Assembly (NCBI GenBank): GCA_026988685.1
Contig: JALSKU010000153.1
Location: 1-48,082, forward strand
Reading direction: 5' to 3'
Length of the DNA: 48,082 nt
DNA from: Campylobacterales bacterium
GTDB lineage: Bacteria; Campylobacterota; Campylobacteria; Campylobacterales; JALSKU01
Shown piece by piece: positions 3,292-24,400 of this stretch. The translations under genes were made by a program, and so were the position numbers. The notes under the pieces are model-generated. The model was not told where the DNA came from. It worked only from the letters and a program-made list of their open reading frames with translations, and did no database searches. Within the stretch, counting starts at the first letter, position 1. The number at the start of each line of letters is the position of its first letter.

Positions 3292-3315
3292 TTTGCCGAT
3301 ACCAATTTTATCTTG

Positions 3316-4692: not shown

Positions 4693-5331
4693 ATGAAAGC
4701 AAATATATTAAACCATCCGCTTATAGATCATAAAATGTCTTTATTGAGAGATGAAAAGAGAAAAATGCCGGAGTTTAAGATGCTTCTTGATGAGATAGGG
4801 TTTTTGATGGCTTATGAAGTTACCAAGGATTTAGAGCTAAAAGATGTAGAGATAAAAACACCTGTTTCAAATATGAAAGCCAAAAAATTAAAGTCCCACC
4901 CTATTTTGGTAACTATCTTAAGGGCAGGGCTTGGACTGTTGGATCCTTTTATGAAACTTATGCCAAACTCCAAAGTAGGCTTTTTGGGTATGGATAGGGA
5001 TGAAGTTACTTTAAAGCCAAGAAGCTATTATGACAAGATACCAAAACAGGCCCTTAAAAACAGGGTTTTGCTTATAGACCCCATGCTTGCTACCGGCGGT
5101 TCTGCATTAAATGCTATAGACTTTTTAGTCCAAAAGGGTGTAAGAGATATAACCTTTATCTGTTTGGTAGCCGCACCGGAAGGCATAAAAGCGATAAATG
5201 AAAAATACCCGGATATCGAGATATATGCGGCGGCACTCGATGAAAAACTAAATGATAAGGGTTATATCGTTCCTGGTCTTGGAGATGCGGGAGATAGGAT
5301 ATTTGGTACAGAAGATAATGAAAATCTATAA
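4693..5331 (+). CDS. upp: Uracil phosphoribosyltransferase
   Basis: The N-terminus (MKANILNHPLIDHKMSLLRD) and the PRPP-binding loop (VLLIDPMLATGGSA) are typical of Upp. The ATG at 4693 is preferred over the TTG at 4681 because a GGAGAG Shine-Dalgarno lies 4 nt upstream. Confidence 0.9.
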   Translation: MKANILNHPLIDHKMSLLRDEKRKMPEFKMLLDEIGFLMAYEVTKDLELKDVEIKTPVSNMKAKKLKSHPILVTILRAGLGLLDPFMKLMPNSKVGFLGMDRDEVTLKPRSYYDKIPKQALKNRVLLIDPMLATGGSALNAIDFLVQKGVRDITFICLVAAPEGIKAINEKYPDIEIYAAALDEKLNDKGYIVPGLGDAGDRIFGTEDNENL

Positions 5332-5340
5332 AGGTTTAAG

Positions 5341-8718: not shown

Positions 8719-9098
8719 TGAAATAGAGGCAACTCTTGATTTGGATACTTTGTTTTTAGGGTTGCAACTGCTATAGCGTACTCTTTTTCATGAGTTATAG
8801 ATAGCGAAGTTTCTACTATATCGTAAGAGTTGATAACTCTTTTTGGAAGGGTGAAGTAGGGGGCATTTTTTTTAGTTTTGTGTAGTTTGATATCTAAAAA
8901 AGAGAGCTCTTTTGATATGCCTATGCCTAAAGCTTTTGAGATAGCCTCTTTTGCAGCATAAAAACCGCTGATACTCTCTATCTTATCTTTGCAAAGAGCT
9001 ATCTCATCTTCGTCTAAAAACCTTTCTAAAGCTTTTTTGCCAAATCTATCATAAAAATCTTGAATTCTGGAAATCTTAACTAAGTCTACCCCGATCAT
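8715..9098 (-). CDS. acpS: Holo-[acyl-carrier-protein] synthase
   Basis: 127 aa. MIGVDLVKISRI..., FYAAKEAISKALG and SLSITHEKEYAIAVA are typical of AcpS. It lies 5 nt downstream of fliL, as in Campylobacter. Confidence 0.85.
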   Translation of the reverse strand: MIGVDLVKISRIQDFYDRFGKKALERFLDEDEIALCKDKIESISGFYAAKEAISKALGIGISKELSFLDIKLHKTKKNAPYFTLPKRVINSYDIVETSLSITHEKEYAIAVATLKTKYPNQELPLFH

Positions 9099-9103
9099 CT
9101 ATA

Positions 9104-9643
9104 TTATTGGACAACAAACTCGGTGAAAAAGATATTTTTTACATTTCCATCAGCCAATACGGCATTGATTTTATCTACAAGCTCATCTTTTAGCTTCTCT
9201 TTTCCTCTGCTGGTACTAACTTCTTGAAAAGTTTTTGATGATAGTGTTCTTATGATGATATCCCTTATAAGTGGTTTTTTCTTATCCAGTTCAGTTGTAA
9301 GCTCAGGTCCACTAAGCTCCAAATCCATCTTTGTTTTTAAAAATCTAGTTCCACCTTGGCTTAGAAGATTTACTATAAACTGATCTAGCGGATAAACAGG
9401 ACCTATCTGCAAAAGATCTGAGTTTCTGACTACCTTTTTTTTACTCATTTTCGCTTGGTTATTTTGCGTAGTCTGAGTAGCAGCATTTGCCTGAGGCTCA
9501 TTGCCGTTGTCACTTAATAGAAAATATGCGGCAATACCGCCACCAACCAAAATGAGAACAAGCAGTATAATAATGATAATAAGTACTAAATTTGAACCTG
9601 ATTTTTTCTCTTTTTTCTCTTCTTCATTTTTTTCTTCAGCCAT
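9104..9643 (-). CDS. fliL: Flagellar basal-body-associated protein FliL
   Basis: 179 aa with a charged N-terminus, a single TM segment (LVLIIIIILLVLILVGGGIAAYFLL), a FliL core and the typical C-terminal FTEFVVQ. Confidence 0.8.
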   Translation of the reverse strand: MAEEKNEEEKKEKKSGSNLVLIIIIILLVLILVGGGIAAYFLLSDNGNEPQANAATQTTQNNQAKMSKKKVVRNSDLLQIGPVYPLDQFIVNLLSQGGTRFLKTKMDLELSGPELTTELDKKKPLIRDIIIRTLSSKTFQEVSTSRGKEKLKDELVDKINAVLADGNVKNIFFTEFVVQ

Positions 9644-9675
9644 AAATCACCCTTTACTATAGTATCTTTATATGG

Positions 9676-9702
9676 ATATCGGTTTTTTTTGATTTTATTT
9701 TA
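9676..9702 (-). promoter_or_regulatory. Possible sigma-28 (FliA)-type promoter upstream of fliL
   Basis: The minus strand reads TAAA-N16-CCGATAT, against the consensus TAAA-N15-GCCGATAA. It lies in the 62-nt gap upstream of the fliL ATG. This is a motif match only. Confidence 0.3.
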
Positions 9703-9705
9703 TAG

Positions 9706-9996
9706 CTACTCTATATTGCATCTTCCAATATTTAAACTTTTTATGATACATTCAAAAAAATCACCTGATTCTTTATCGTAATCATCGTGAAATTCTATGA
9801 TATATGTCCCCTCATTGCTTTTTTCATTGTCATGCTCTATCATTATATCAGGAGAAACCTCGTACTCCTTAATGCAGCTTACTAATGTTTCATTTATCTC
9901 CTTGCTCTGCTCTTTTGAAAAATACTTTATCTCGAGCATAGCATATCTCTCTTCCATCTCATGGTAAGCTTCGATACAAGCTTTTTTATCAGCCAT
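9706..9996 (-). CDS. Hypothetical small acidic protein
   Basis: 96-aa ORF in the same orientation as its neighbours. I recognised no motif. Confidence 0.45.
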   Translation of the reverse strand: MADKKACIEAYHEMEERYAMLEIKYFSKEQSKEINETLVSCIKEYEVSPDIMIEHDNEKSNEGTYIIEFHDDYDKESGDFFECIIKSLNIGRCNIE

Positions 9997-10061
9997 TGTA
10001 ACCCTTTATCTTTTTGTTTGGTAAAGAAATTATACCTAAATAAAATAAATTAGTCATAAAA

Positions 10062-11411
10062 CTACATCCAATCTATAAGCTTTGAGACCTCTTTTACCTC
10101 ATAGCATTTGATACCCCTTATCTCCTCTATAGGTTTTTTAGGAACTATGGCTTTTGTAAAGCTTTGCATCTTAGCCTCTTTGAGTCTTAAGTCTAAGTTG
10201 AAAATATCTCTTATATTTCCTATGAGTGTTATCTCACCCAAAAAGATGGTATCTTTACTAAGTGGCCTGTTTCTAAAACTGCTCACAATAGCAGCCATGA
10301 TAGCTAAATCACAGGCAGTTTCATTTATCTTTATACCACCTGCAATATTTACAAAAACATCATAATTGTTAAATGGCAGCCCCAGTTTTTTCTCTAAAAG
10401 TGCCAATAACATATTGAGCCTGTTTAGCTCATATCCAGTAGCACTTCTTTTTGGATTTGGAAAATTACTTTCGCTGACTAATGCCTGAACTTCAAGTATA
10501 ATGGGTCTTGTTCCCTCCATTGCTACTGTTATGGCTGAACCTGCTTGAGAGTTTTCTCTGGAGAAAAACTTTTTGGATATATCATTTGCACTGATTAGTC
10601 CCCTTTGACTCATCTCAAATATACCTACTTCGCTTGTTGAACCAAATCTGTTTTTGATGCCTCTTAAGAGTCTTAACTCTTTTGAAGAGTCGCCTTCAAA
10701 ATATAAAACAGTATCGACCATATGTTCAAGTATCCTAGGACCTGCGATAGAGCCCTCTTTTGTTATATGTCCTATGATAAAGACTGCTACTGAATTTTCC
10801 TTACCCCACCTCATAAGTTCAAATGTTATCTCTCTAACTTGCGAAACACTTCCCGGAGCTGCCGTTAACTTTTCTGTGTATATTGTCTGAATAGAGTCGA
10901 TTATCAAGATATCATATCTGTTTTGATTTAATTCACTGAAGATATTTTCTAGTCTTATCTCTGTAAGTAGATAAATATCCGGATGGTTTACATCAAGTCT
11001 GTCGGCTCTTAGTTTTATTTGAGATTTGGACTCCTCTCCACTTACATACAGCACTCTTTTTTTCTCTTTTGCCAGATTACCGGCTATCTTTAAAAGAAGA
11101 GTTGATTTGCCAACTCCTGGACTTCCTCCGATAAGCACCAAACTCCCCGGAACTATACCGCCTCCAAGAACTAGATCTAACTCCTTAGAGCCTGAGGAGT
11201 ATCTTGTGACTTCATCTTTTTTTATCTCTGGAAGGGATTCGGCTTTTTCAAAAGAGGTGTTAACGGAAGAGGTTTGTTTTAGTATCTCTATCTGAGTCTT
11301 GTTTAGCTCAACTATCTGCTCCCAAGCTCCACAATTTGGACATCTTCCCATCCATTTTGATGTTTGATAACCGCAAGCCTGACACTCGAAAAGCTGTTTT
11401 GTTTTAGCCAT
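10062..11411 (-). CDS. radA: DNA repair protein RadA (Sms)
   Basis: N-terminal zinc ribbon (CQACGYQTSKWMGRCPNCGAW), Walker A (GGSPGVGKST), the KNRFG motif (IKNRFGSTSE) and a Lon-like C-terminal domain. Confidence 0.95.
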   Translation of the reverse strand: MAKTKQLFECQACGYQTSKWMGRCPNCGAWEQIVELNKTQIEILKQTSSVNTSFEKAESLPEIKKDEVTRYSSGSKELDLVLGGGIVPGSLVLIGGSPGVGKSTLLLKIAGNLAKEKKRVLYVSGEESKSQIKLRADRLDVNHPDIYLLTEIRLENIFSELNQNRYDILIIDSIQTIYTEKLTAAPGSVSQVREITFELMRWGKENSVAVFIIGHITKEGSIAGPRILEHMVDTVLYFEGDSSKELRLLRGIKNRFGSTSEVGIFEMSQRGLISANDISKKFFSRENSQAGSAITVAMEGTRPIILEVQALVSESNFPNPKRSATGYELNRLNMLLALLEKKLGLPFNNYDVFVNIAGGIKINETACDLAIMAAIVSSFRNRPLSKDTIFLGEITLIGNIRDIFNLDLRLKEAKMQSFTKAIVPKKPIEEIRGIKCYEVKEVSKLIDWM

Positions 11412-11497
11412 TGGTTACCCCTTTTAGAGGGGCAAAGTAGGATAGGTGCAAAGGGGTAAAGGTGTAGATGGTGGAGGATTGGGTGTTTTGGGTTATT

Positions 11498-12373
11498 TTA
11501 TGATTTGTAAAAAGCATCCAAAAGACCATCAACATACTCATTGGCATCAAATTTGACCAGATCATCCTCTTTTTCACCTACTCCTATATAGAGTATAGGA
11601 AGTTTTAGTTCGTTTGCTATGCTAAAAAGAGCTCCGCCTTTTGCAGTTCCGTCAAGTTTTGTAATGATGATAGCATCAACTCCTACTATCTCTTTAAAAG
11701 CATTTGCCTGAGCTATAGCTGAGTTTCCCTGTGTCCCATCAAGTATGAGTATCTTTCTATGAGGTGCTCCCTCTTTGGCTTTATCGCAAATCCTGACTAT
11801 CTTTTTTATCTCATTTGATAAGTTTGTCTGATTGTGCAGTCTTCCTGCCGTATCGATAAGTACACTGTCAAAACCTTTGGCAGTTGCAGATTTTATAGTG
11901 TCGTAAGCCACTGCTGAAGGGTCATGACCTTGTTTGGTAGCTACTATAGGTATATCAAGTTTTTCCGCCCATCTTTTTAGTTGCTCAACTGCCGCTGCTC
12001 TAAAGGTATCTGAAGCTCCAAGGATGACTTTTTTACCCTCTTTTTTATAAAAGTTGGCTAACTTTGCTATAGTTGTTGTTTTTCCGGCTCCGTTTACCCC
12101 AAGAACCAATTCAACTACCGGTTTATCTTCTATCTTTTTTGGTTTTGGGGTTTCCAAGAAAAAAGAGAGTAAAACTCTTTTTAAATCCTCCCTTTTTACT
12201 ATATCACCGGCCGGCAGATAAAAGAGTATTTTTTCAACACTATCGTAGTCAACATCAGCTTCAAGCAGTATATCTTCGATCTCATCTTTTGTAAGTTTTA
12301 GCTTCTTTTCCGGAGCTACGCCTTTTATAGCTTCAGCAGTTTTTTTTAGAGATTTCTTGATAAAGCCTATCAT
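11498..12373 (-). CDS. ftsY: Signal recognition particle receptor FtsY
   Basis: SRP-GTPase NG domain: GVNGAGKTTTIAKLA, DTAGRL, TKLDGTAKGG. Confidence 0.95.
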   Translation of the reverse strand: MIGFIKKSLKKTAEAIKGVAPEKKLKLTKDEIEDILLEADVDYDSVEKILFYLPAGDIVKREDLKRVLLSFFLETPKPKKIEDKPVVELVLGVNGAGKTTTIAKLANFYKKEGKKVILGASDTFRAAAVEQLKRWAEKLDIPIVATKQGHDPSAVAYDTIKSATAKGFDSVLIDTAGRLHNQTNLSNEIKKIVRICDKAKEGAPHRKILILDGTQGNSAIAQANAFKEIVGVDAIIITKLDGTAKGGALFSIANELKLPILYIGVGEKEDDLVKFDANEYVDGLLDAFYKS

Positions 12374-12960
12374 TTGCCTATAGCCTTTTTTATATCGCTC
12401 TCTATCATCTCTTCGGGAACAGCACCGAGATAGCTTGTCACTTTTTCTCCGTTTTTGTCATAGAGTATCATAAATGGTATTTTACTCACGCCACCTAACA
12501 TATTGGAAAATGTAAAATTGCTCCCCCCGTTTGTTATAGTGTAGTTTATATGGTTAAACTTTATAAAATTTTTTATCTCGATATCCGGTTTGTCATCTTC
12601 AAGAAGTATGGAGATGATTTTTAGATCTTTTTTGTATCTGTTTTGGAGGTTGGTTAAATGTGGTATCTCTGCTTTGCAGGGTGGACACCAGGTAGCAAAA
12701 AAGTCAAGCAAGATCGCTTTATCGTTATCTTTTAATTTTATATCGCTACCTTTTTTTATGAAGGTTACTTTTTCGCCGTTAACGCCATGGAGTGTTATCT
12801 CTTCAGTCATAACGGAATTTTCTGCTTTTGACAACTTCTCTTTTGCTTTTGTTTGTATGGTGTTACCGCTCTTTTTTACAGGATTCTCTTTTTTAGCTTT
12901 TTCACAGCCTCCAAATATTAAAATAGTAGCCAAAAGTGTGAAATAGAAAAATTGTTTCAT
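12370..12960 (-). CDS. TlpA/ResA-like thiol:disulfide oxidoreductase lipoprotein (thioredoxin fold)
   Basis: Lipobox (LIFGGC) and the thioredoxin active site FFATWCPPCKAEIP. Confidence 0.75.
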   Translation of the reverse strand: MKQFFYFTLLATILIFGGCEKAKKENPVKKSGNTIQTKAKEKLSKAENSVMTEEITLHGVNGEKVTFIKKGSDIKLKDNDKAILLDFFATWCPPCKAEIPHLTNLQNRYKKDLKIISILLEDDKPDIEIKNFIKFNHINYTITNGGSNFTFSNMLGGVSKIPFMILYDKNGEKVTSYLGAVPEEMIESDIKKAIGK

Positions 12961-13035
12961 AAAAAGACCTTGATTGAAAAAATTTAATCAGTATTATAGC
13001 GAGTTATTATAAAATTTACCAAAGGTTGTAAAGTT

Positions 13036-13689
13036 ATGTTTCTTGATAAAAAAAGTTTTAGAAAAGTCTGCAAAAAAAGGCTTGAAAATAGCTCAAAAAG
13101 AGCAAAGCTGTATAAAGATAAGCTGATACAGAAAAAATTGCTAAAAATCATAAAAAGTTATAAATCTAAAAAAATACTTCTTTATATACCTTTTGGTTTT
13201 GAGGCAGATATAAGGCCTATTGTAAACATTATGAGAAAAAAATGTACTGTTTTTGTCCCATTTATGGAGAGTGTCAGTTTTAAAATTGTAAAATATAGAT
13301 TGCCATTAAGAGAAAAAAGATTTTCTATAAAAGAGCCTCTTAACTCATCTTTAAAGATAGATGAAGTTGATATGGCTGTAGTTCCTGTGCTGGGAGTCGG
13401 CAGGGATTACAAAAGGGTGGGTTTTGGCAAAGGAATGTATGATAGATTTTTTGCAAATCTAAAAAAAAGACCCACTACGATATTTGTTCAGATTGAAAAG
13501 TGTTTTAATAAAAAAGCTACAACCGATAAGTTTGACATCCAATCTGATTTTTATGTAACTCCCAAAAAAATTTATATAACAAGGGGAAAGAGAGATGTTC
13601 GTAGAGATTTCAATAGCCGCAGCAGGCTTGATAGTGGGAGGAGTTTTAGGCGCAATCATCCAAAAAAAGCTGGAGTCGTCAAAATTTGA
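13036..13689 (+). CDS. 5-formyltetrahydrofolate cyclo-ligase
   Basis: Family motifs are PVLGVGRDYKRVGFGKGMYDRFF, plus an early LLYIPFGFE. The last roughly 31 codons overlap the start of rny in another frame (see findings). Confidence 0.7.
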   Translation: MFLDKKSFRKVCKKRLENSSKRAKLYKDKLIQKKLLKIIKSYKSKKILLYIPFGFEADIRPIVNIMRKKCTVFVPFMESVSFKIVKYRLPLREKRFSIKEPLNSSLKIDEVDMAVVPVLGVGRDYKRVGFGKGMYDRFFANLKKRPTTIFVQIEKCFNKKATTDKFDIQSDFYVTPKKIYITRGKRDVRRDFNSRSRLDSGRSFRRNHPKKAGVVKI

Positions 13690-15163
13690 AGTTTATGAAG
13701 CGGGTGCAAGAGCTAAAGCAAAAGCAATAGAGCATGAGGCTGAACTTGTTTTAAGAAATGCCAAGTTAAAAGCAAAAGATCTCGAAATAGAGGCAAAAAA
13801 AGAGTATGAAGAGAGATCTAACGAGCTTAAAAAAGAGTATGAGCAAAAGCTTGCCCAACTGGAGAAAAAAGATGAAGCTTTAAATGATCTTTTTAAAGAT
13901 GAACTTAAAAACATAACAAAAGAGAAAGATGAGATAAAGGCGTTAAAAAAAGATATAGAGCAAAGAGCAAATGAAGTTGAGGAGCTTAAAAAAGAGTATA
14001 AAGTTAAACTTGATGATGCTTTGAAAGTCCTTGAGAGATCAGCCGGACTGACTGAAAAAGAGGCAAGGGAGATAGTTCTTAAAAAAGTTGAAGAAAATTC
14101 AAGAGCCGAGATAGCTCATATCGTAAGAAAGTATGAAGAGCAGGCAAAACAGGAGGCTAAGAAAAAGGCTAACTTTATACTTGCTCAAGCTACTACAAGG
14201 TATGCAGGAGACTACGCGGCGGAGAGACTTATAAATGTTGTAAATATACCAAATGATGACCTAAAAGGAAGGATCATAGGAAAAGAGGGAAGAAATATAA
14301 AAACTCTTGAGATGCTTCTAGGGGTAGATGTTATCATAGATGATACTCCAAATGCTATCATACTTAGTAGCTTTAATCTCTACAGGAGGGCAATTGCCGC
14401 AAAGGTTATAGAGCTTTTGGTAGAAGATGGACGAATACAACCGGCAAGGATAGAGGATATTTATGAAAAAGTAAAAGCTGAGTTTGAGCAAAGTCTTCTT
14501 GAAGAGGGTCAGGATATAGTTATAGATATGGGGCTTACTAAAATTCATCCTGAGATAGTAAAACTTATAGGAAGACTAAAATTTAGAGCAAGTTATGGAC
14601 AAAATGCACTCGGCCACTCTTTGGAAGTAGCACACCTTGCAGGTATCATAGCAGCTGAACTTGGCGGGGATGAACAGCTTGCAAAAAGGGCCGGACTACT
14701 TCATGATATAGGCAAGGCTTTGACTCACGACTTTGCAGGAAGCCATGTGGACTTGGGAGCAGATCTTTGCAAAAGATACAAAGAGCATCCGGTTGTTATC
14801 AACGCCATATATGCTCACCACGGACATGAAGAGCCTACAAGTGTTGAGGCTGCTGCAGTATGTGCTGCCGATACGCTGAGTGCCGCTAGACCGGGAGCTA
14901 GGAGAGAGGTATTGGAAGCCTTTTTAAAAAGAGTTCAAGATATAGAAGCTATAGCAACATCAAAAGAGGGTATAAAACAGGCTTATGCTATAAATGCAGG
15001 AAGAGAAGTAAGAGTTATAGCAAATGCAAAACTTGTAAATGATGATGAGGCTGTTCTTATCTCAAAAGAGATAGCAAAAGAGATAGAGGAGAAAGTTCAA
15101 TATCCCGGAGAGATAAAAGTAAATGTTATAAGAGAGCTTAGAGCTGTAGGATACGCGAGGTAG
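13595..15163 (+). CDS. rny: Ribonuclease Y
   Basis: N-terminal TM anchor (VEISIAAAGLIVGGVLGAII), a long coiled coil, a KH domain (GRIIGKEGRNIKTLE) and an HD domain (LLHDIGKA...HH). Confidence 0.95.
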   Translation: MFVEISIAAAGLIVGGVLGAIIQKKLESSKFEVYEAGARAKAKAIEHEAELVLRNAKLKAKDLEIEAKKEYEERSNELKKEYEQKLAQLEKKDEALNDLFKDELKNITKEKDEIKALKKDIEQRANEVEELKKEYKVKLDDALKVLERSAGLTEKEAREIVLKKVEENSRAEIAHIVRKYEEQAKQEAKKKANFILAQATTRYAGDYAAERLINVVNIPNDDLKGRIIGKEGRNIKTLEMLLGVDVIIDDTPNAIILSSFNLYRRAIAAKVIELLVEDGRIQPARIEDIYEKVKAEFEQSLLEEGQDIVIDMGLTKIHPEIVKLIGRLKFRASYGQNALGHSLEVAHLAGIIAAELGGDEQLAKRAGLLHDIGKALTHDFAGSHVDLGADLCKRYKEHPVVINAIYAHHGHEEPTSVEAAAVCAADTLSAARPGARREVLEAFLKRVQDIEAIATSKEGIKQAYAINAGREVRVIANAKLVNDDEAVLISKEIAKEIEEKVQYPGEIKVNVIRELRAVGYAR

Positions 15164-15168
15164 ATTTT

Positions 15169-15906
15169 ATGGATAGTGAAGATAGTATCGAATTAGACAG
15201 CGAGGAGTATTCTCCTGTCTATTTCGAACTTTCTGAACTCTCTTTGAATTTCTTAGAGGATTTTTTTAAAAATGAGATAGAGGTATTGGTTTTCAATACA
15301 AACTTTCTTCAAAATAATGGCTTTCAATATCAAAAGGATATAGACTTTACCCAGTTGTATAGATTTTTAAAAGTAGAATATAATACAATCTACTCCATAG
15401 ATCCCAAAGTTACAGATGCATTAATCGAAAAATTTTACAGAGACATAGAGTATCTTTTTAGATTTTACACCAAATTTAAAGAAAAAAGATCAAATATAAA
15501 CTCCGTATACAGCAATTTTTTGAACAAGAATGGAGGAGTAGCCTCTATAGGACAGAAAATATTTAAAAAAGATTTGGATAACAAGGAGATAGAGGAACTT
15601 GATGATATACTTAAAAGCGAGTTTGAAAGTAGTTTTTTAAAGGAGTATGAAGAGATAAAAAGCGAATTAAAAAGAGTTATAAATACCAAAAGTTACTATT
15701 TTGATGCTCTTTTATGGAAAGAGGCAAGAAAGAGCAGAAGCATTAATGATTTTTTTAAACAGTTGGTCAGATTAAATATCAAAAGTAGCAGTGATCTTAA
15801 TATAAAGTTATTTATCGTTCAGTATTTAAACAGTGTTGATTTAAATCATGTTAAAAATCCAAAGTGGCATGATTACCTTCAAAAGGTTATAAAGGTGATC
15901 GACTAA
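15169..15906 (+). CDS. Hypothetical protein
   Basis: 245-aa ORF located 5 nt after rny and coupled to the next ORF through a TAATG overlap. I recognised no motif. Confidence 0.5.
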   Translation: MDSEDSIELDSEEYSPVYFELSELSLNFLEDFFKNEIEVLVFNTNFLQNNGFQYQKDIDFTQLYRFLKVEYNTIYSIDPKVTDALIEKFYRDIEYLFRFYTKFKEKRSNINSVYSNFLNKNGGVASIGQKIFKKDLDNKEIEELDDILKSEFESSFLKEYEEIKSELKRVINTKSYYFDALLWKEARKSRSINDFFKQLVRLNIKSSSDLNIKLFIVQYLNSVDLNHVKNPKWHDYLQKVIKVID

Positions 15907-16430
15907 TGATAGTTAAAAATACCATCTATACCGAAAATGAGATAGCTAGAATTTTAGAAGCTGGTGAAAGACGCAAACTTACTGCTTCCGAAAAGAAGCT
16001 TTTGGAGATATATGACAAGATATATCTTTTTGATGGTATTGGTGAAGAGGATATCATAAAGATTGTTAAAAATGTCTCTTTTAAAAAGGTAAAAAAGGGA
16101 GATGTTATTTTACAAGAAGGGGAGAAATCACCCGAGATATATTTTATACTAACCGGAAAAGTTGTAGTAGTTACAGAAAAAAATAAGATAGTAGCCACGA
16201 TAGGCTCCGGATATATGTTTGGAGAGATGACATTTGTAACAAAACACTCAAGAAGTGCAACCATACTTAGCTATGATGATAGAACCGTGCTTTTATCGTT
16301 TGAAATAGATGAAGACAAATGTAGTGAAGTATATGCTTTTCCTTTTGTTAAGTTATATCAAAATATCGCACTTGATTTAGCTCGAAAGATAGAAAAAACA
16401 AATAAAAAAATTAAAGCTGGAAATAGATAA
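15906..16430 (+). CDS. Cyclic-nucleotide-binding (cNMP/Crp-type) domain protein with no recognisable output domain
   Basis: 174 aa. The segment GDVILQEGEKSPEIYFILTGKVVVV...GYMFGEMTFV...RSATI matches the cNMP-binding beta-barrel and phosphate-binding cassette pattern (FGE...R[ST]A). There is no C-terminal HTH. Confidence 0.65.
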   Translation: MIVKNTIYTENEIARILEAGERRKLTASEKKLLEIYDKIYLFDGIGEEDIIKIVKNVSFKKVKKGDVILQEGEKSPEIYFILTGKVVVVTEKNKIVATIGSGYMFGEMTFVTKHSRSATILSYDDRTVLLSFEIDEDKCSEVYAFPFVKLYQNIALDLARKIEKTNKKIKAGNR

Positions 16431-16443
16431 CCTTAAAAGATAA

Positions 16444-16470
16444 GGCCCTGTAAAACCAACTGTGTAAATC
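16444..16470. repeat. IS256-family left terminal inverted repeat
   Basis: GGCCCTGTAAAACCAACTGTGTAAATC. It matches the reverse complement of 17861-17887 except for two 1-nt indels and one mismatch. Confidence 0.8.
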
Positions 16471-16529
16471 CAAAAAAACAACCAGTATGATAAAATATAA
16501 ACTGGATAAACTAAGCAAGGATTTACACA

Positions 16530-17825
16530 ATGAGTATTTTAAATAAAGAAGAGTTAAGAAGACAGATAAAAGAAGGTAAAGGTATCAATATTGAAGATAT
16601 CTTAGATGAATTTAAAGGTATGCTCCAAGAAGTATACCAAACTGCTAGTGAAGTAGAGCTTACAGACCACTTAGGCTATAACAAAAACAATAAATCAGAT
16701 AATCCAAACTACCGCAATAGATATAATAAAAAAGACTAAAATCAAAGTATGGTGAAATAGATGTAGCAATTCCAAGAGATAGAGACTCTACTTTTGAACC
16801 CAAGCTAATAAAAAAGAGACAAACTCTAATAGAGGGGGCAGAAGATTTAATTCTGTCACTATATACCAAAGGTATGAGTGTAAGAGATATATAGCATCAT
16901 CTTGATGATCTATACGGTTATGAACTCTCAGAACAAACAATATCGAATATAACAGAGGCTATAATAGACAAAGCCAAAGAGTGGCAGAATCGTCCTTTAG
17001 AAGCAATCTATCCAATTATATTTATGGATGCTACCGTTTTAAAAATAAGAGTAGATAGAGTAGTTAAAAATATAGCTGCATATATAATGCTAGGAATTAC
17101 TCTTGATGGTAAAAAAGAGATTATTGGTATTTGGATAGGAGAGAATGAGACAAGTAAATACTGGTTAACACTTCTTAACGAACTAAAAAATAGAGGTGTT
17201 GAGGATGTTCTAATATTTGCCATAGATGGTCTTAATGGCTTTAATCAAGCAATAGAAGCGGTTTATCCCAAAGCTGAGATACTTCTGCTTGCAGTGATGT
17301 GAGCGTAGCGAAACGAAAAAGATGTATAGTGCATCGTCTGAGCGAAGCGACAACCCCGCAACGAAGTGAGGACAAATAAGAAGTTCTTTGAGATATGTAT
17401 CATGGAAAGATAGAAAAGCAGTGGCAAATGACTTAAGATCGATATATACTGCACCAACTGAAGAAGATGGGCAGCTTGCCCTTAGAGAATTTAATGATAT
17501 TTGGGGTAAAAAATATCCTCATATTACTCAATCTTGGCAATCCAACTGGGGTGAACTTGCAACTTTTTATAAATACCCAGATGCTATAAAAAAGTTGATT
17601 TATACCACAAATCCAATAGAATCGTTAAATTCATCAATCAAAAGAAGAACTAAATCCAAAGGCTCATTCCCTACGGTTGATTCAGCTTTTAAAATGCTAT
17701 ATCTTGCTACACAGGAGGTTCAAAACAAATGGAAGGTTAACAGTTTAAGAAATTGGAGTGAAATTTACCCTCAGCTTTCTCACAGAGAGTGCAAGCACAA
17801 GGCATATTTTTTCAAGATATTATGA
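16530..17825 (+). pseudogene. IS256-family (mutator-type) transposase, disrupted
   Basis: The pieces read as one IS256-like protein: ...HLGYNKNNKSDNPNYRNRYNKK / RLKSKYGEIDVAIPRDRDSTFEPKLIKKRQ...GMSVRDI*HHLDDLYG...PIIFMDATVLKIRVD...IFAIDGLNGFNQAIEAVYPKAEI / KRCIVH / QIRSSLRYVSWKDRK...IYTTNPIESLNSSIKRRTK. There are four lesions:
- a frame change at the A-run 16728-16733;
- an in-frame TAG at 16892-16894;
- an insertion of about 35 nt at 17282-17316;
- a 38-nt insertion at 17336-17373. Confidence 0.8.
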
Positions 17826-17860
17826 TAAAATATGCAAAGTAGATTTAGAGGGTGTGAGGT

Positions 17861-17887
17861 GGTTTACACAGTTTGGTTTACAGGGCC
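17861..17887. repeat. IS256-family right terminal inverted repeat
   Basis: GGTTTACACAGTTTGGTTTACAGGGCC, the reverse-complement partner of 16444-16470. Confidence 0.8.
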
Positions 17888-18040
17888 GCTACTTTTTTTC
17901 TTATTCTTATTTTGTTTTTCATTATTTTCTATCTTTCTTTCGGGGGCTATATCGTTACTGTCGCAAACCGGGCAACAACACCAATCAGCACTTCCACTCT
18001 TCCATCTAAAACCACAATTTATACAAACCAAAATATACAC
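17864..18040 (-). CDS. Small zinc-ribbon protein (58 codons as it stands); its 3' end is fused to or truncated by the IS256 right inverted repeat
   Basis: This ORF is not in the supplied track because it is too short. An AGGAG lies 6 nt upstream of the GTG at 18040. The translation is VYILVCINCGFRWKSGSADWCCCPVCDSNDIAPERKIENNEKQNKNKKKSS, followed by GPVNQTV* encoded by the IS repeat. CxxC...CPVC is a zinc-ribbon signature. A perfect TATAAT (minus strand, 18071-18076) lies about 30 nt upstream. Confidence 0.45.
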   Translation of the reverse strand: MYILVCINCGFRWKSGSADWCCCPVCDSNDIAPERKIENNEKQNKNKKKSSGPVNQTV

Positions 18041-18070
18041 TATTAGCTCCTATTGATAAATTTAGTAGCA

Positions 18071-18093
18071 ATTATATGACTATTTTTTGTCAA
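18071..18093 (-). promoter_or_regulatory. Putative promoter for the zinc-ribbon mini-ORF
   Basis: The minus strand reads TTGACAAAAAATAGTCATATAAT: a perfect -10 TATAAT (18071-18076) abutting a TGAC-N8-GTCA palindrome. It overlaps the stop region of the upstream CARF-HEPN gene. Confidence 0.3.
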
Positions 18094-19469
18094 TTTTTGT
18101 CGGCTATCAATTTTTTGTAGTTTTTTATCAGAGTGGATAGCTCTTTTTTGGCATTACTTACTTCGTAAGAACTGTTTCCATGAGAGAGGTTATTTCTTAA
18201 ATCTTCAACACGCTTTATGAGTTCGATAAGATCTTCATTATCTTGTTGCTTTAACTTTTCTATGATAATATTTTTTATATTTTCTTTTGAGTTTAGATTT
18301 TTCTGAGATAGTTCAAGTTTAAAACCTTCTAACTCAATCATACTTAAAATATGCTCTGGAATCTCTCTTTTTAGTTTCTGTTTTTTCTTTTGTAGAGATT
18401 TTTTTTGTGATGCGGTTAATGCTTTAGAAGGATTAAATAAATATGGCCCATGAAAATTTTCTTGATTTTTTATAATATTTTTTGATTGATGTGACAGTTC
18501 ATAGAGATTAAAATTATCTTTGCTTTTATATTCTTCAATATGCTCTTTTATTTTATTGTCTAGCTCCTCAAGTTTTTTAGCACAATATAGACCTACGGAT
18601 TCATTTAAAAGTGTTATAGAGTTAAGTAGGTATTCTCTATCTTTTAATAATTTGGAAAGTTCAAAATATTTTTTGTAATCCCGGTTATTTTTTAACGAAT
18701 ACAAATCTTCCAAATGTTTAATGACAGTATCGATATATGTAGAAAATGAAGCAATATGTCTATCTTTTTTTAGAGTTTTTAGCTCTACGATGCTTTTTTG
18801 TAATAGATTATCATCTCCTTCAAATAGAGTCTTTATGGAGTTTGCTAAAATATGTCCGGAGATTATTCTTAAATTATCAACAAGTTCTTGATACTTTTCG
18901 TTTTTAAAAACTACATGGTTGCCTATAGTGTAGTTGTCATTAAAATTTTTTAGCACAAAAGCGAGCTTCGACAATCCAATATATTCTGATAAATCTACAA
19001 TTTCATATCTCTTATTTTTGTCAATTTCCTTTGCAAAAAGTATATGCTCTATCTTTTCTGGATTGTCTATAGAGGCTATTATGATATTAATAATCATTAA
19101 AATTGGTATATGTCTAAAACCATGAGTCAAATCTACGATAAATGTTTCATATCTATCATCTTTTAATACTTTTGCCAACTCTTGAAATATTTGATTGTAG
19201 TCGGTATCATCTTTTATCTCTATCGCATTTTCCATCACTTCCGTATTATAATCTATACTCTTAAGGGTCTTTTTTTGTTGCTCTTTTGTCTCTTTTGTTG
19301 AGATTGGTATGATTTCGCAATCAGGGAAAATATCCATAAGAAGAGGTAAAGTATTTATGTGCTCTATCTCTTTATTGTCGCTTAATATCTCGAGATTTTT
19401 AGAAAATGTATATTTTGCTCTATTTTTTCCTCCTACCGTTCCCAATATGGTTATAACTGCTTTTCTCAT
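18090..19469 (-). CDS. Stand-alone Csx1/Csm6-like protein: N-terminal CARF domain (DxTHG / TM1812-like family) and C-terminal HEPN RNase motif
   Basis: 459 aa. The N-terminus (MRKAVITILGTVGGKNRAKYTF) has the CARF beta1-Gly-loop pattern (xLGTxxx...Y). The exact DxTHG signature is present: FIVDLTHGFRHIP. A long Lys/Glu/Asn-rich helical middle region follows. The C-terminus carries LIKRVEDLRNNLSHGNSS, which fits the HEPN Rx4H motif in its R-N-x-x-x-H form, as in Csx1/Csm6. An AAGGTG Shine-Dalgarno lies 5 nt upstream of the ATG. Confidence 0.7.
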   Translation of the reverse strand: MRKAVITILGTVGGKNRAKYTFSKNLEILSDNKEIEHINTLPLLMDIFPDCEIIPISTKETKEQQKKTLKSIDYNTEVMENAIEIKDDTDYNQIFQELAKVLKDDRYETFIVDLTHGFRHIPILMIINIIIASIDNPEKIEHILFAKEIDKNKRYEIVDLSEYIGLSKLAFVLKNFNDNYTIGNHVVFKNEKYQELVDNLRIISGHILANSIKTLFEGDDNLLQKSIVELKTLKKDRHIASFSTYIDTVIKHLEDLYSLKNNRDYKKYFELSKLLKDREYLLNSITLLNESVGLYCAKKLEELDNKIKEHIEEYKSKDNFNLYELSHQSKNIIKNQENFHGPYLFNPSKALTASQKKSLQKKKQKLKREIPEHILSMIELEGFKLELSQKNLNSKENIKNIIIEKLKQQDNEDLIELIKRVEDLRNNLSHGNSSYEVSNAKKELSTLIKNYKKLIADKN

Positions 19470-20610
19470 TTGTCACCTTTGCAATAAGATAGTATTTTTT
19501 ATTTGCAAACTCTCTTATAAACTGATCATTTTCCCATTTGCCTTTAATAATTCTTCCGTTATTATATCTAAAAATACCATACCCTTCTCTTTTATCATTT
19601 TTAAAATCTCCTCTGTACTGCTCACCGTTTGTATATTTTAATTTTCCATATCTGTGAAATAATCCGTTTTTCCAATACCCTGTGTAACAATCATAGTAAA
19701 CATTTCCACTTTTTAAGTCATAGTTTTTTTTGTTAAATTTATAAATTCCAAACCCATTTCTCAATCCATCTTCAAAACAACCAATATATATATCTCCGTT
19801 ATGAAATATTGTTTTTCCCTTGGCAAAAGGTAGCCCGTTTTTTAGTGAGCCTCTGTATCGATCTCCATTTGCATATTGAATATTTACTCCAAAATAATAA
19901 TAGTTACCATTCATATATTTATAATTTTTGATTTGGGTTTGCTCGATCCTGTTTATGATGGTTTCGTTAAAATTTGCAACTATATCTATATTGTATCTCA
20001 TAAATGGTTGAGCTTTCATACCAAATACACTATATAGTGTTTTTAAAGTTTGGTAAGGGTCTTTATTGTCTTTTCTATTTTTTAAAATTGAGATAATTTC
20101 TTCACATTGAGTGTCAATCGTATATTTTAAAAATATTCCGTATGCGGTTAAGTCTACCATCTGCATCTTTAGTAACGGTATCTCTTTGCTTAGAGTATCT
20201 ATTTTTTTATCATGTGCACTCCTGTCTCTATATTCCCCATATAGAGCTAAAGCTATTATAATTGATGCTAATGTAAAAGTGATAGTGCTATCAAAGAAGA
20301 AAGAAGCTATTAATGCAATTATAATTATCCAAAAGTAGGTAGAAAAGGAGTAAGAAGGCTTAAAACTATTTCTCTTTTTATATTCAAAACTATCATATAT
20401 CCACTGTTTTACTGTGGGGATATTACTTAGGTCTATTTTAGAGATATCGTTATCGTTGACATATAGTTGTTGAAAAAGTTTTGCGATATAGGTATTGGTA
20501 TTAATTGCATCACTTCTTTCCCTGTACTCTTCGGCATCATTTTTTATCTTATCAAGCTTATTATTGACTTCTGAAACTTCAAAGTATGTTAACATGTCAA
20601 ATAATTCCAT
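19420..20610 (-). CDS. Membrane protein with a 2-TM hairpin and C-terminal MORN repeats
   Basis: 396 aa. Its parts are:
- a soluble N-terminus of about 90 aa;
- the hydrophobic hairpin YFWIIIIALIASFFFDSTITFTLASIIIALALYG;
- a region of about 110 aa that I could not assign;
- 4-5 MORN-type repeats (YRGSLKNGLPFAKGKTIF / YIGCFEDGLRNGFGIYKF / YTGYWKNGLFHRYGKLKY / YRGDFKNDKREGYGIFRY / IKGKWENDQF).
An AAGGAG Shine-Dalgarno lies 6 nt upstream. The 3' end overlaps the CARF-HEPN gene by 50 nt. Confidence 0.7.
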   Translation of the reverse strand: MELFDMLTYFEVSEVNNKLDKIKNDAEEYRERSDAINTNTYIAKLFQQLYVNDNDISKIDLSNIPTVKQWIYDSFEYKKRNSFKPSYSFSTYFWIIIIALIASFFFDSTITFTLASIIIALALYGEYRDRSAHDKKIDTLSKEIPLLKMQMVDLTAYGIFLKYTIDTQCEEIISILKNRKDNKDPYQTLKTLYSVFGMKAQPFMRYNIDIVANFNETIINRIEQTQIKNYKYMNGNYYYFGVNIQYANGDRYRGSLKNGLPFAKGKTIFHNGDIYIGCFEDGLRNGFGIYKFNKKNYDLKSGNVYYDCYTGYWKNGLFHRYGKLKYTNGEQYRGDFKNDKREGYGIFRYNNGRIIKGKWENDQFIREFANKKYYLIAKVTNEKSSYNHIGNGRRKK

Positions 20611-20639
20611 CGAAAACTCCTTTTAAAACTTTTAATGGA

Positions 20640-20672
20640 ATTATATATGATAAAAATGACAAAAAATGTCAA
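20640..20672 (-). promoter_or_regulatory. Putative promoter/operator of the MORN / CARF-HEPN operon
   Basis: The minus strand reads TTGACATTTTTTGTCATTTTTATCATATATAAT. The -35-like TTGACA is part of a TGAC-N7-GTCA palindrome, followed by a TATATAAT -10-like box about 30 nt upstream of the ATG. The -35/-10 spacing is longer than canonical. Confidence 0.3.
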
Positions 20673-20680
20673 TTAAACTT

Positions 20681-21301
20681 CTATAACCCCTCAAGTATAA
20701 TATTATAAAGATTTTCTACTTCATTATCATTAAGTAGGATGGAGTTTTTTTCGTCGAAAAAGAGCTCTATCTTTTTTTTGTCAAATCCATTTTCGCTTTT
20801 TAGACAAGTTGAACAGGCTGGAAGAAAGGCTCTGGTTAAGACCACTTTGCTTTCAATATTTTTTTCGCAGATGAAGCAGGAAAAATCGTTATGGAGTCTT
20901 CCTTCAAACTCCAAAAGTTTTGCGTATGACTCTATGACAACTCTTTTGGGGTGAGATTTTTCGAGGTAGAGGGATGTCTCTTCAAGTAGTTTATAGTAAA
21001 AACTATCTACCTCATTGACATCTCTTAGGTGCTTAAAAAGAAGCTGTAAAAATTGCTGCCAGATGTAGTATCTCTCCCTTTTTAGAAGCCATTTAAAGTT
21101 TAGTAAAGAGACATTTCTTAGTTGCTTTAAATTTTCTCTGTTTGTCGGGTGTGCTTCGAAGTCTATCTTGTAGCCTAGCAGAAGGTTGGAGTGTCTTGCT
21201 CCATAAAATCTATATAGTATTTTTATCCTGTTTTCGGTAAGAATAGTTACCAAAAGGTCTTCATCTCTAACTTTTTGAGTGTTTAGTATATAGCCTTGCA
21301 T
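20681..21301 (-). CDS. recO: DNA repair protein RecO (short epsilonproteobacterial form)
   Basis: 206 aa. MQGYILNTQKVRDEDLLVTILTENRIKILYRFYGARHS is a typical RecO OB-fold N-terminus, and a C-terminal Cys cluster is present (CFICEKN...CSTC). Confidence 0.75.
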   Translation of the reverse strand: MQGYILNTQKVRDEDLLVTILTENRIKILYRFYGARHSNLLLGYKIDFEAHPTNRENLKQLRNVSLLNFKWLLKRERYYIWQQFLQLLFKHLRDVNEVDSFYYKLLEETSLYLEKSHPKRVVIESYAKLLEFEGRLHNDFSCFICEKNIESKVVLTRAFLPACSTCLKSENGFDKKKIELFFDEKNSILLNDNEVENLYNIILEGL

Positions 21302-21372
21302 TGGCGTATTTTAGCATAAATGAGACATTTTATCAAATATTTACCAAAGATTAGATATAATCCATAAATTTT

Positions 21373-21471
21373 CTGCCCATATTTCTTTTTTGGTGAATAG
21401 AAAACTTCTCTAATAAAAAAAGTTTTCTTTGTGAGGAAGTCTTTTAAAAACCAGTAAAAAAATATGGGCAG
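21373..21471 (+). promoter_or_regulatory. Structured 5' leader of gltBD (nested hairpins)
   Basis: The outer stem is a 12-bp perfect pairing of CTGCCCATATTT (21373-21384) with AAATATGGGCAG (21460-21471). The inner stem is a 9-bp perfect pairing of AGAAAACTT (21399-21407) with AAGTTTTCT (21420-21428). A TATAAT-like box (GATATAAT, about 21352-21359) lies just upstream, and the gltB ATG is at 21495. Confidence 0.35.
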
Positions 21472-21494
21472 GTAGCAAGACAGAAAGGTTGCCT

Positions 21495-24400
21495 ATGAGT
21501 AAAAACAGATACTATAAAAATTTTAAAGACAATTGCGGTTTCGGACTTTTAGCCAGTATAGACAATAAAGCTACGCATCAAAATGTCAATGATGCTGTTG
21601 AAGCTTTGGAGAGAATGATGCACAGAGGTGCAGTCGCGGCTGATGGAAAAAGTGGAGACGGTAGCGGCCTTCTTTTTGGTATGCCAAGAAGTTTTATGAG
21701 AAAAGTAGCCAACCAAAACGGACATGATTTACCAAAGCAATTTGCCGTAGCTATGGTCTTTATGCAAGAAGAGAAACAAAAAGAGATAATCGATGAAGTT
21801 TTAAAAAAGAATGATCTTAAGGTTCTCTTCTACAGAGATGTTCCTGTAAATACAGAAGCTTTGGGAGAGTTTGCGCTAAAGAGTTTACCAAAAATTGTTC
21901 AGATCTTTGTAACCCCCAATTCCATATCAGCTACTAAAAGATTTGGTACCGCTATCTATCTTGCAAGGAGAGAAATAGAAAGAAAGTTAAAAAACTATGA
22001 AGATTTTTATATCTGTTCTTTTTCAGACAAGACTCTTTCATACAAAGGTCTTGTAATGCCAACTCATATAAAAGAGTTCTATCTTGACTTGAGTGATAAA
22101 GATTTTAAAACCTCTTTTGCTCTTTTTCACCAGAGATTTTCAACCAATACCTTACCTCAGTGGAAATTGGCTCAACCTTTCAGAACTATTGCTCACAATG
22201 GAGAGATAAACTCCATCTCAGCTAACAGATTTAATCTTCTGGCTAAAAGCGAGTATATGAAAAGCCCTGTTTTTACAGACAAAGAGCTGAAAAAACTATT
22301 TCCTATAACAAGTGATGATGTTAGTGACAGTGCTAGTTTGGATCATATGTTTGAGTTTCTTTTGCAAAATGGAGTGGATTTTTTTAAGGCTGCTAGAGTT
22401 TTGATCCCGGCTGCTTGGCAAAATGCTCCGCATATGGACTCTGATATGAGAGCTTTTTATGAGTATATGAGTACTTGCTTTGAAGCTTGGGATGGACCTG
22501 CTGCAGTTAGTTTAACCGATGGTAGGCATATAGGTTGTATCTTAGATAGAAACGGACTAAGACCTGCAAAATATATAATAACAAAAGATAAAAGAATCAT
22601 CATCTCAAGTGAGTATGGCATACTTGATATAGAGGAGAATTTGGTTATCGAAAGAGGAAAATTAAAAAGTGGAGAGATGATAGGTATAGATCTAAAGTAT
22701 GGAAAAGTACTTAAAGATGATGATATAAACAACTATCTAAAAGATTTAAACCCTTACGGAAAGTGGCTAAACTCCAATATGGTCTATCTCCAGGAGTTTA
22801 TAGATCTTCCATTCACCAACATGGATGACTATAAAGTTAAAGAGATAGAAAAAAAACAAAGAGTCGCAAATATAACCATGGAAGCTAAAGATATGGTTAT
22901 CTTCCCAATGATGAAAGAGGGAAAAGAAAATACCGGCTCTATGGGAGATGATACTCCATTGGTGGCTTTTAGCAAGAAACAAAGATGTTTCACAGACTTT
23001 TTTAAGCAAAAATTTGCTCAGGTTACCAACCCTCCTATAGATCCTATAAGAGAGAGGATTGTTATGAGTCTCAATACAGGCTTTGGGGAGATAAGAAATA
23101 TCTTGGAAGAGGATGTTCACCATGCCAAGAGACTGAAAGTTATAACTCCTATCATGATGCAAGAGAAGATGGAAGTTCTTTTATCGTTTGGAGACCCAAG
23201 TAAGCCAAGATATGATAAATTTTATAAAAACAGGATATTTTCAACCCTTTTTGAAGATAATTTAAGAGGAAGTTTAAATGATTTGGCTTACGATGTGGTT
23301 GATGCAGTCAAGCAGGATAAGGTGCGAGTTGCTATCTTAAGTGACAGATGTGTAAATAAAGATAAAAAACCTATACCGATGGCAATGGCAGTCGGAAGGG
23401 TAAATCAAGTACTGTTGGAAGAGGGTGTTAGACACCTAGTTTCTATCGTGGTAGAGAGTTGTGAGCCTTATGACTCACACTCGATGGCTGTATTGATAGC
23501 CTATGGGGCAAGCGCCATCTATCCATATCTGCTTTTTGCAACTGTTTTAGAGGAGTGTGATAGATTAGGACTCTCCTCTTATGAAAGAAAAATCAGATTT
23601 AAAAATGTTTTGAATGCATTAAATCTTGGACTTTTAAAGATATTGTCCAAAATGGGTATATCAACGATAGCCTCATATAGAAACTCTGCCTTGATGGATG
23701 TTATCGGTTTATCAAAAGAGATAGTTGAGGATTGTTTTAGCTACTCAAGTTGTATAATCCCGGGGCTTAGTTATGAAGATATAGAAGCAAGAATAAACAA
23801 AAACCACTCACAAGCTTTTGAAGAGAGTGAGCGAAACAGAGTCTTTCCTATAAAGATAGGAGGATTTTACAAATTTATCATGGGAGAAGAGTTTCATGGA
23901 TTTTCTCCCGATGTTGTTTTTGCTATACACCAATCAGCTAAAACTGGTAAAAAAGAGGATTTTGCCACTCTTAAAAAAGCTTCTGATGAAAAAGGACTTG
24001 TTAGGATTAGAGACTTTTTTGAGTTAAAGAGTGACAGAGAGCCTATAGATATAGATGAAGTTGAATCGGTAGAAAATATCTTTAAAAGATTTTCGACCGC
24101 AGCGATGAGTCTTGGCTCTATTTCACCGGAAGCCCATGAGGCACTAGCAGAAGCTATGAATACTATAGGCGGTAAGTCAAACTCCGGAGAGGGCGGAGAA
24201 AAACCGGAAAGACTAAAAAGTCCTCAAAGATCCAAAATAAAACAGATAGCTTCAGGTAGATTTGGTGTGACTCCAGAGTATCTAAGAAGTGCTGAAGAGA
24301 TACAGATAAAAGTGGCTCAAGGTGCAAAACCGGGTGAGGGAGGACAGCTTCCGGGTCACAAAGTAAGTCCGCTAATTGCTAGTTTAAGATATACAATGCC

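Follow-up and report, generated by a model that had tools for sequence, protein, structure and literature searches.

A probable displaced orphan of the Csx1/Csm6 family beside an unrelated MORN-repeat gene at an insertion sequence-linked rearrangement in a Campylobacterales bacterium

Introduction

CARF-HEPN RNases have been described as trans-acting accessories in reviews of type III CRISPR effectors (PMC9704534, PMC6546367), and csx1 genes are able to work together with type III systems from a distant genomic locus (PMC6546367). Here we analyse a gene for a 459-amino-acid (aa) protein of this kind, hereafter csx1, which lies in a contig of 48,082 nucleotides (nt) from a Campylobacterales bacterium (GenBank assembly GCA_026988685.1, contig JALSKU010000153.1, forward strand). 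The whole of this contig is referred to below as the window. The csx1 gene is tightly packed with an open reading frame (ORF) for a membrane protein carrying MORN repeats and with a Zn-ribbon mini-ORF, and the original prediction had regarded the three as a candidate undescribed defence or toxin module. The results presented below suggest that csx1 is, in all probability, a displaced accessory gene of type III systems and that the three ORFs do not constitute a new system. The ORFs in question are as follows.

19420-20610, minus strand: ORF of the 396-aa MORN-repeat membrane protein (ORF list)
18090-19469, minus strand: csx1/csm6-family gene of the 459-aa CARF-HEPN protein (ORF list, ATG start)
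17864-18040, minus strand: 58-codon Zn-ribbon mini-ORF (ORF list, GTG start)

Results

The 459-aa protein is predicted to be a Csx1/Csm6-type RNase

Over its entire length, the 459-aa protein matched the PADLOC model PDLC01828 (CARF2--CARF_HEPN; E=2.5e-100), and it also matched 17 more PADLOC models for CARF, Csx1 and Csm6 proteins, among them PDLC01032 (Csx1/Csm6, E=7.3e-33). The CARF_HEPN models could be aligned up to residue 459, and the label CARF2 derives from the name of the PADLOC model only. The NCBIfam model TIGR02549 (DxTHG) scored 23.3 bits, with a cut-off of 21. The N-terminal CARF motif D113-L-T-H-G-F-R-H120 was found, and V-D113-L-T-H-G-F-R-H120 is invariant across the family, whereas the C-terminal part contains the HEPN R-x4-H motif R425-N-N-L-S-H430. 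When 17 family members were aligned, the protein kept 49 of the 49 invariant columns, which include D113, H116, G117, F118, R119 and H120 in the CARF domain and R425, N426, L428, H430 and N432 in the HEPN domain.

The AlphaFold2 model built from the alignment was confident (predicted local distance difference test (pLDDT) score of 83; predicted template-modelling score (pTM) of 0.67) and contains an N-terminal beta-alpha-beta domain. The top Foldseek matches of this model were Csx1-Crn2 (8y7g), Csx1 (6qzt) and Csm6 (5fsh), with E values from 2.6e-8 to 4e-4; the matches to Marinitoga Csx1-Crn2 included a mutant bound to cyclic tetra-adenylate (cA4), and the CARF-helix-turn-helix fragment 8y75 was matched with E=3.9e-6. 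The CARF-HEPN call made initially from DxTHG and RNNLSH is thus upheld by the PADLOC profile, the motifs and the Foldseek search with the AlphaFold model. Taken together, profile, motifs and modelled fold identify the 459-aa protein as a CARF-HEPN RNase of the Csx1/Csm6 type, its RNase activity being a prediction. From the conserved motifs and the fold we infer that the homodimer would bind cyclic oligoadenylate (cOA) and act as a cOA-activated RNase. The gene has its own ribosome-binding site (AAGGTG, 6 nt before the ATG) and looks intact and functional.

A Lys-rich insertion (LTASQKKSLQKKKQKLKREIP...GFKLELS; window 18285-18437, minus strand; approximately residues 345-395) was observed ahead of the HEPN motif. 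Only some members of the family have it, and it was modelled with lower confidence.

The CARF-HEPN family is almost always found inside type III CRISPR-Cas loci

Searches with the 459-aa protein returned about 200 homologues, listed at 30-56% identity, most of them without names; the named ones belong to Sulfurovum and Campylobacter and carry the source labels 'TM1812 family' or 'DxTHG motif CRISPR-associated protein'. A genomic scan with one genome per species yielded 73 CARF-HEPN loci, nearly all of them in Campylobacterota, and the closest match in this genome collection was 45% identical. Four metagenomic homologues (P0145, P0133, P0123 and P0126) showed 50-56% identity to the 459-aa protein in the family alignment, all of them in type III neighbourhoods. 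The P0145 locus is a full III-A system with Cas6, Cas10, Csm2, RAMPs, Cas1/Cas2 and an array, and the other three genes adjoin RAMPs, Cas2, WCX/AAA_33, MJ1673 and Fic genes.

The census of the family was limited to the 42 genomic loci that span 10 kb or more, and the vicinity was counted as 10 kb. Cas profiles were iterated from a few seeds (the cas genes of loci L005, L010 and L002) and combined with a simple array detector; because these home-made profiles derive from few seed proteins, the counts that follow are lower bounds. Cas10 was present in 26 of the 42 loci, Cas10 or RAMPs in 33, and any cas gene or CRISPR array in 40, a count that rises to 41 of 42 when the companions WCX/AAA_33 and MJ1673 are included. 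Across all 73 loci, a WCX+AAA_33 protein recurred in 46 and an MJ1673-family protein in 45, and in many Campylobacter loci the MJ1673 gene directly follows the CARF-HEPN gene. These data indicate that members of this family are almost always accessory genes inside type III CRISPR-Cas loci. CARF-HEPN, WCX/AAA_33 and MJ1673 genes were also seen together as a recurrent accessory trio within such loci (for example L019, 9995-11667, and L005, 8408-11413).

The sole clear exception to the type III context was a 691-aa homologue in the Campylobacterota bacterium GLC1 (L074, 9668-11743, plus strand). Like the window copy, this gene stands by itself between housekeeping genes, and a cas gene is absent from the 10 kb around it; the L074 gene differs in its low identity (29%) and length, in its neighbours, glyQ and glycosyltransferases, and in being accompanied by neither a MORN protein nor an insertion sequence (IS). 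An MmeI/Eco57I-type restriction-modification gene is located 4 kb from this homologue. Neither the CARF-HEPN family nor that of the MORN protein was found on viral contigs or phage records; a plasmid search gave one CARF-HEPN match (Arcobacter cloacae, 35% identity, annotated as TM1812 family), and a PHROGs search gave weak matches only, with function unassigned.

The window itself contains none of this context. The Cas10, RAMP, Cas6, Cas1 and Cas2 profiles had zero matches across its 48 kb, and no CRISPR array, tRNA or Rfam family was detected there. The absence of cas genes and arrays from the window, as originally read from the letters, was therefore confirmed by the array, Rfam and home-built profile scans.

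The MORN protein belongs to a separate small family that is not linked to CARF-HEPN genes

The coordinates confirmed the three packed minus-strand ORFs and the 50-nt overlap between the 396-aa and 459-aa ORFs; the mini-ORF is packed as tightly as had been claimed, but its distance from the 459-aa gene is 49 nt and not 50 nt. The 396-aa protein nevertheless appears to be an unrelated neighbour. Pfam PF02493 (MORN) matched it with E=3.9e-14 in three scored repeats (approximately residues 240-360), further MORN repeats were visible in the alignment, and no other Pfam match was obtained. Hydropathy analysis showed a hydrophobic transmembrane hairpin at approximately residues 89-124 which, considered with the flanking charges, weakly suggests that both termini may be cytoplasmic. 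No PADLOC family matched this protein or the mini-protein, and neither a CARF nor a SAVED, cyclase or other signalling domain was found in the MORN protein with Pfam and PADLOC. Its AlphaFold2 model, made without an alignment, was unusable (pLDDT 33).

A full-length search identified one real relative (P0002, 32% identity), which is devoid of the transmembrane hairpin, contains additional TPR repeats and is not accompanied by a CARF-HEPN gene nearby. With residues 1-235 as the query, a word-index search returned the self match only, and an exhaustive search returned 28 cluster representatives among 1.84 billion. The N-terminal region of about 235 residues (window 19906-20610, minus strand; P0241-P0266; L086, L087, L090) thus appears as a small undescribed family, characterised by the motifs MSxWxxLTxxE and LFQxLYxxNNDISK, the hydrophobic hairpin and the motif LSAYGxYLKWYxD. 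The C-terminal part of its members is variable and consists of MORN, Sel1-like or other repeats, or of none.

Two alignments of the module (A2 and A3) were too divergent for scanning loci, but a 4-sequence alignment worked, and the metagenome scan yielded six loci of MORN-protein relatives, five of them in the N-terminal-module family. No CARF-HEPN or cas gene was found in any of the six. Three of them (L086, L087 and L090) have instead a conserved gene for a lipoprotein of about 110 aa directly downstream, overlapping or close, of which there is no trace in the window. Their other neighbours are mixed and include UbiD, flagellar genes, an integron-type integrase and a DndB-like gene. In one locus (L088), the MORN-family gene (166-1131, minus strand) lies about 470 nt from a divergent Phage_int_SAM_4 + Phage_integrase gene (1598-2248, plus strand), a layout that resembles an integron integrase with its first cassette. 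In agreement with the lack of linkage on this side, none of the 73 genomic CARF-HEPN loci and none of about 10 metagenomic ones has a MORN-family neighbour. A literature search joining MORN repeat, CRISPR and CARF found nothing published.

The overlap can be accounted for in the same way. The three closest MORN relatives end 4-7 residues past the last MORN repeat, whereas the window protein is about 25 residues longer and runs with a non-homologous tail over the csx1 ribosome-binding site and first codons. We infer that the 50-nt overlap is due to read-through at a recombination junction, because the MORN ORF would have lost its native stop there and reads into csx1, and that it is not a conserved coupled design.

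The three ORFs lie in a strain-specific segment that ends in a decayed IS256-family element

The three-ORF cassette has recO upstream and IS256-type transposase fragments downstream. The features of this region are as follows.

16410-20714: strain-specific segment of 4.3 kb (IS and three ORFs), not in close relatives
20681-21301, minus strand: recO, intact core gene at the right-hand segment boundary (Pfam RecO_N_2, E=8.9e-31)
15906-16430, plus strand: gene of a 174-aa cNMP-binding protein, core gene at the left-hand segment boundary (Pfam cNMP_binding, E=2.7e-15)
16435-17896, plus strand: IS256-family (Transposase_mut) element, 1462 bp, with both inverted repeats
16530-16739: transposase fragment, Transposase_mut profile positions 17-67
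17024-17302: transposase fragment, Transposase_mut profile positions 165-249
17388-17825: transposase fragment, Transposase_mut profile positions 262-377

The cassette (17897-20680) has a GC content of 28.6%, compared with 34.9 +/- 1.9% in 764 windows of the same size elsewhere, none of which is equally low; its AT-richness, at first judged by eye, is thus a computed property. The only direct repeats or att-like sites found to bracket it were chance AT-rich matches, and a promoter and terminator scan gave nothing above shuffled expectation. Upstream of the MORN gene there is a promoter-like site (20730-20702, minus strand) that agrees with the consensus at 10 of 12 positions and is a consensus match only.

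Comparison with close relatives showed where the segment begins and ends. The relative L092 (87% DNA identity) is collinear with window 5174-16409 and then continues with an NMT1-like gene and a GGDEF/EAL gene, whereas L096 (94.5% DNA identity) is collinear from 22459 down to 20715, with a RecO 95% identical to that of the window over 206 aa, and then continues with Haem_bd, ABC and PemK genes; none of these continuing genes of the relatives occurs in the window. The segment 16410-20714 is missing from L092 on the cNMP-binding side and from L096 on the recO side, and neither relative has the cassette or the IS. As to the claim that this is the only accessory DNA in 48 kb, the stretches 5174-16409 and 20715-22459 agree with it by being collinear with relatives, and the check covered those stretches only.

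The transposase fragments scored E values down to 1.5e-30, and the reading frame is interrupted, leaving at least three pieces, so that the transposase gene is a pseudogene. The terminal inverted repeats (16435-16468 and 17863-17896) are 34 nt long and 82% complementary. The element had been called an IS256 remnant, which is correct for its broken transposase, but it retains both inverted repeats and is not just a stump. Reading both flanks ('...agataacctt' and 'tttcttattc...') bore out the lack of a target-site duplication: whichever plausible end of the element is taken, they share no direct repeat of the expected 8-9 bp. The IS is located at the synteny break, and other assemblies of the same strain break there; an identical locus is present in the samples ERZ27262649 and SRR7968110. 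The window flanks of the segment are not adjacent in L092 and L096, as would be expected from an IS that lacks a target-site duplication; the missing duplication fits an IS-mediated rearrangement, and the synteny break agrees with it.

Across the IS from the cassette, the rny, 245-aa and cNMP-binding genes are core genes, kept in L092 and L094 without IS or cassette. The cNMP-binding gene was considered as a signalling partner of the cassette and ruled out, being core and kept in cassette-less relatives. The 245-aa protein, which has no Pfam match, is translationally coupled to the 174-aa cNMP-binding protein after rny (window 15169-16430, plus strand), and the pair is conserved in L092-L095, where it precedes the NMT1-like and GGDEF/EAL genes; this group may represent core genes for cyclic-nucleotide signalling, interrupted by the IS in the window strain. 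On the other side, L096 harbours a PemK-family toxin gene with an 83-aa partner (2855-3440, minus strand) three genes from recO, and the region downstream of recO is therefore variable in the lineage.

The Zn-ribbon mini-ORF ends inside the IS

The motifs CINC and CPVC are present in the mini-ORF, as expected from the CxxC...CPVC pattern first noticed in it. Its last 11 codons (48-58) and its stop lie inside the right inverted repeat of the IS, which supplies them, and the 58-aa ORF is thus partly IS-derived. Two Campylobacterota loci hold homologues, about 40 aa long, of its native part (window 17897-18040, minus strand).

L059, 78-203, plus strand: Zn-ribbon homologue in a type III locus, overlapping the 5' end of an MJ1673-family gene
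L065, 15579-15698, plus strand: Zn-ribbon homologue beside xseA

The distance from these homologues to the CARF-HEPN gene is about 10 kb in L059 and 4 kb in L065, and outside the window locus no Zn-ribbon homologue was found directly beside a CARF-HEPN gene. In the window, no MJ1673-like stump is recognisable in the approximately 50 nt between the Zn-ribbon motif and the IS. These observations make the mini-ORF a member of a real mini-protein family, which is not a regular partner of CARF-HEPN genes, and its C terminus here an IS artefact. The family, seen in Campylobacterota, follows the pattern CxxCgfxW...CPxCxSxDI and gave a weak match to phrog_29191 (E=0.006).

Discussion

The evidence makes it probable that csx1 is a displaced, orphan accessory gene of the Csx1/Csm6 type that belongs to type III systems and lies beside an unrelated MORN gene at an IS-linked rearrangement, rather than being part of a new system. 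The AT-rich, strain-specific segment would have been acquired horizontally and joined to the chromosome via the decayed IS256-family element. The MORN gene would be an unrelated, lineage-specific neighbour whose own small family is not found beside CARF-HEPN or cas genes, and the Zn-ribbon mini-gene could possibly come from the same kind of type III accessory cluster, its 3' end having been replaced by the IS end. The 459-aa protein would dimerise, and binding of cA4 or cyclic hexa-adenylate (cA6) from Cas10 in its CARF pocket would switch on the non-specific HEPN RNase. A cOA-gated RNase without a local Cas10 would therefore act only in trans, and whether this csx1 copy responds to a signal from a Cas10 elsewhere in the genome we judge to be slightly short of an even chance. 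Two suggestions of the original prediction fit such an orphan csx1 at an IS rearrangement, namely that it may serve in trans a type III locus located elsewhere and that the cassette may be what truncation has left of a larger island.

Several points weigh against the displaced-orphan explanation. The NCBIfam model TIGR02221 (cas_TM1812) gave 32 bits with the 459-aa protein, under its cut-off of 76 bits, and the family profile (alignment A1) found nothing at E<=1 among PDB sequences, which is the reason why a fold search was used. The coverage of the genome is the 48-kb contig, within which the presence of Cas10 was judged, and the absence of pairing on the MORN side rests on six loci, mostly short contigs. 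In addition, csx1 is fully intact, has a good ribosome-binding site and is transcribed in the same direction as recO and the MORN gene; these features are compatible with a function that has been maintained and, possibly, with expression together with the MORN protein.

An explanation that assigns csx1 the same identity and differs only in its present function is that the genome has no type III system and that the gene is a recently transferred or left-over accessory fragment, cut off by an IS-mediated deletion, decaying and deprived of an activating signal. The two flanks, of 18 kb and 28 kb, contain no cas gene, the usual companions WCX/AAA_33 (46/73) and MJ1673 (45/73) are missing, and the IS without a target-site duplication occupies the position expected for MJ1673 and overwrote the end of the Zn-ribbon ORF, whose homologue stands directly before the MJ1673 gene in L059; a second cas-less member of the family is known from L074. 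However, a full-length ORF that keeps every invariant residue would be odd for an old unused gene, although a recent event would explain it, and the data cover the 48-kb contig only. We regard an unused relic as rather unlikely.

The tight packing on one strand and the 50-nt overlap would also be expected of a self-contained abortive-infection module, one of the possibilities named in the original prediction. In this case the MORN protein would be a sensor or anchor, and the CARF-HEPN RNase would be activated, or localised, by it without Cas10. Both genes are intact in one AT-rich, strain-specific segment where neither has its usual local partner, the N-terminal module of the MORN protein with its variable C-terminal repeat domains is compatible with a variable sensor, and some MORN relatives lie in variable regions, near an integrase or a DndB-like gene. 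But the pairing recurs in 0/73 genomic and 0/~10 metagenomic CARF-HEPN loci and in 0/6 loci of MORN relatives, the CARF-HEPN family is in a type III context in 40/42 loci, the MORN protein has neither a signalling domain nor a PADLOC match, its relatives pair with a lipoprotein gene, the overlap is accounted for by junction read-through, and the window contains no nucleotide cyclase. Such a module is thus very improbable, and the proposal that the three genes form an undescribed defence or toxin module is not sustained; the lack of a conserved pair and the nearly constant type III setting of the family are both outcomes that the original prediction had itself named as refuting it. It appears just as improbable that csx1 was captured into an operon with the hairpin-anchored MORN protein and that the two now serve defence or a stress response independently of a local Cas10, as a module still emerging in this lineage; the MORN protein might, for instance, hold the RNase at the membrane, or a nucleotide signal from another source might act on the RNase. 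HEPN domains are the toxins of HEPN-MNT toxin-antitoxin pairs, and the mini-ORF, 49 nt downstream on the same strand and a member of a real small-protein family, had been proposed as antitoxin or regulator of a HEPN toxin. This idea fails on conservation, since the Zn-ribbon ORF does not recur as a neighbour and in other loci its homologues never adjoin a CARF-HEPN gene; moreover, the HEPN domain is here gated by a CARF sensor and would need no antitoxin, and the 3' end of the mini-ORF is IS-derived, which leaves a toxin-antitoxin pair extremely improbable.

The finding mainly removes a false lead, for a cas-less CARF-HEPN gene packed with an unusual membrane protein mimics a new system. It also documents a well-populated Campylobacterota subfamily of Csx1/Csm6 proteins with no solved relative detectable by sequence, shows how accessory effectors get separated from their Cas10 signal source, and reveals a small undescribed family of membrane proteins with a conserved N-terminal hairpin module, variable repeats and a lipoprotein partner.

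Comparison with known systems

A membrane protein encoded beside a gene of the cOA pathway recalls the cOA-responsive membrane effectors of type III systems (CARF- and SAVED-transmembrane fusions, PMC9704534); the MORN protein differs from these in having neither a CARF/SAVED sensor nor a PADLOC match, and its family is not cas-linked. Unlike HEPN-MNT modules, the window HEPN domain is fused to CARF and is not a small stand-alone protein, and no MNT/NTP_transf_2 gene is adjacent to it.

One close group is the Campylobacterota TM1812/DxTHG family (Sulfurovum, Campylobacter concisus, Arcobacter; PDLC01828), with which the 459-aa protein shares 36-56% full-length identity and the same invariant residues. 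The members of that family normally travel with WCX+AAA_33 and MJ1673 in III-A or III-B/D loci, whereas the window copy has none of WCX, AAA_33 and MJ1673 and is flanked by the MORN gene and the IS instead. With Csx1 and Csm6 proteins in general, the 459-aa protein shares a CARF Rossmann-like N-terminal domain with DxTHG, followed by a helical region and, at the C terminus, by a HEPN domain carrying R-x4-H, and its model was matched with a Foldseek probability of 1.0 to the Marinitoga (8y7g), S. islandicus (6qzt) and T. thermophilus (5fsh) structures. Its identity to the solved structures is only 12-17%, and the TM-scores are moderate (0.41-0.54), as expected for two domains with differing orientation. 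The ring-nuclease fusion Crn2 of Csx1-Crn2 (8y7g) is not part of the 459-aa protein, and the remaining difference from Csx1/Csm6, the location of the window copy away from any cas neighbour, is a feature of its context and not of its structure.

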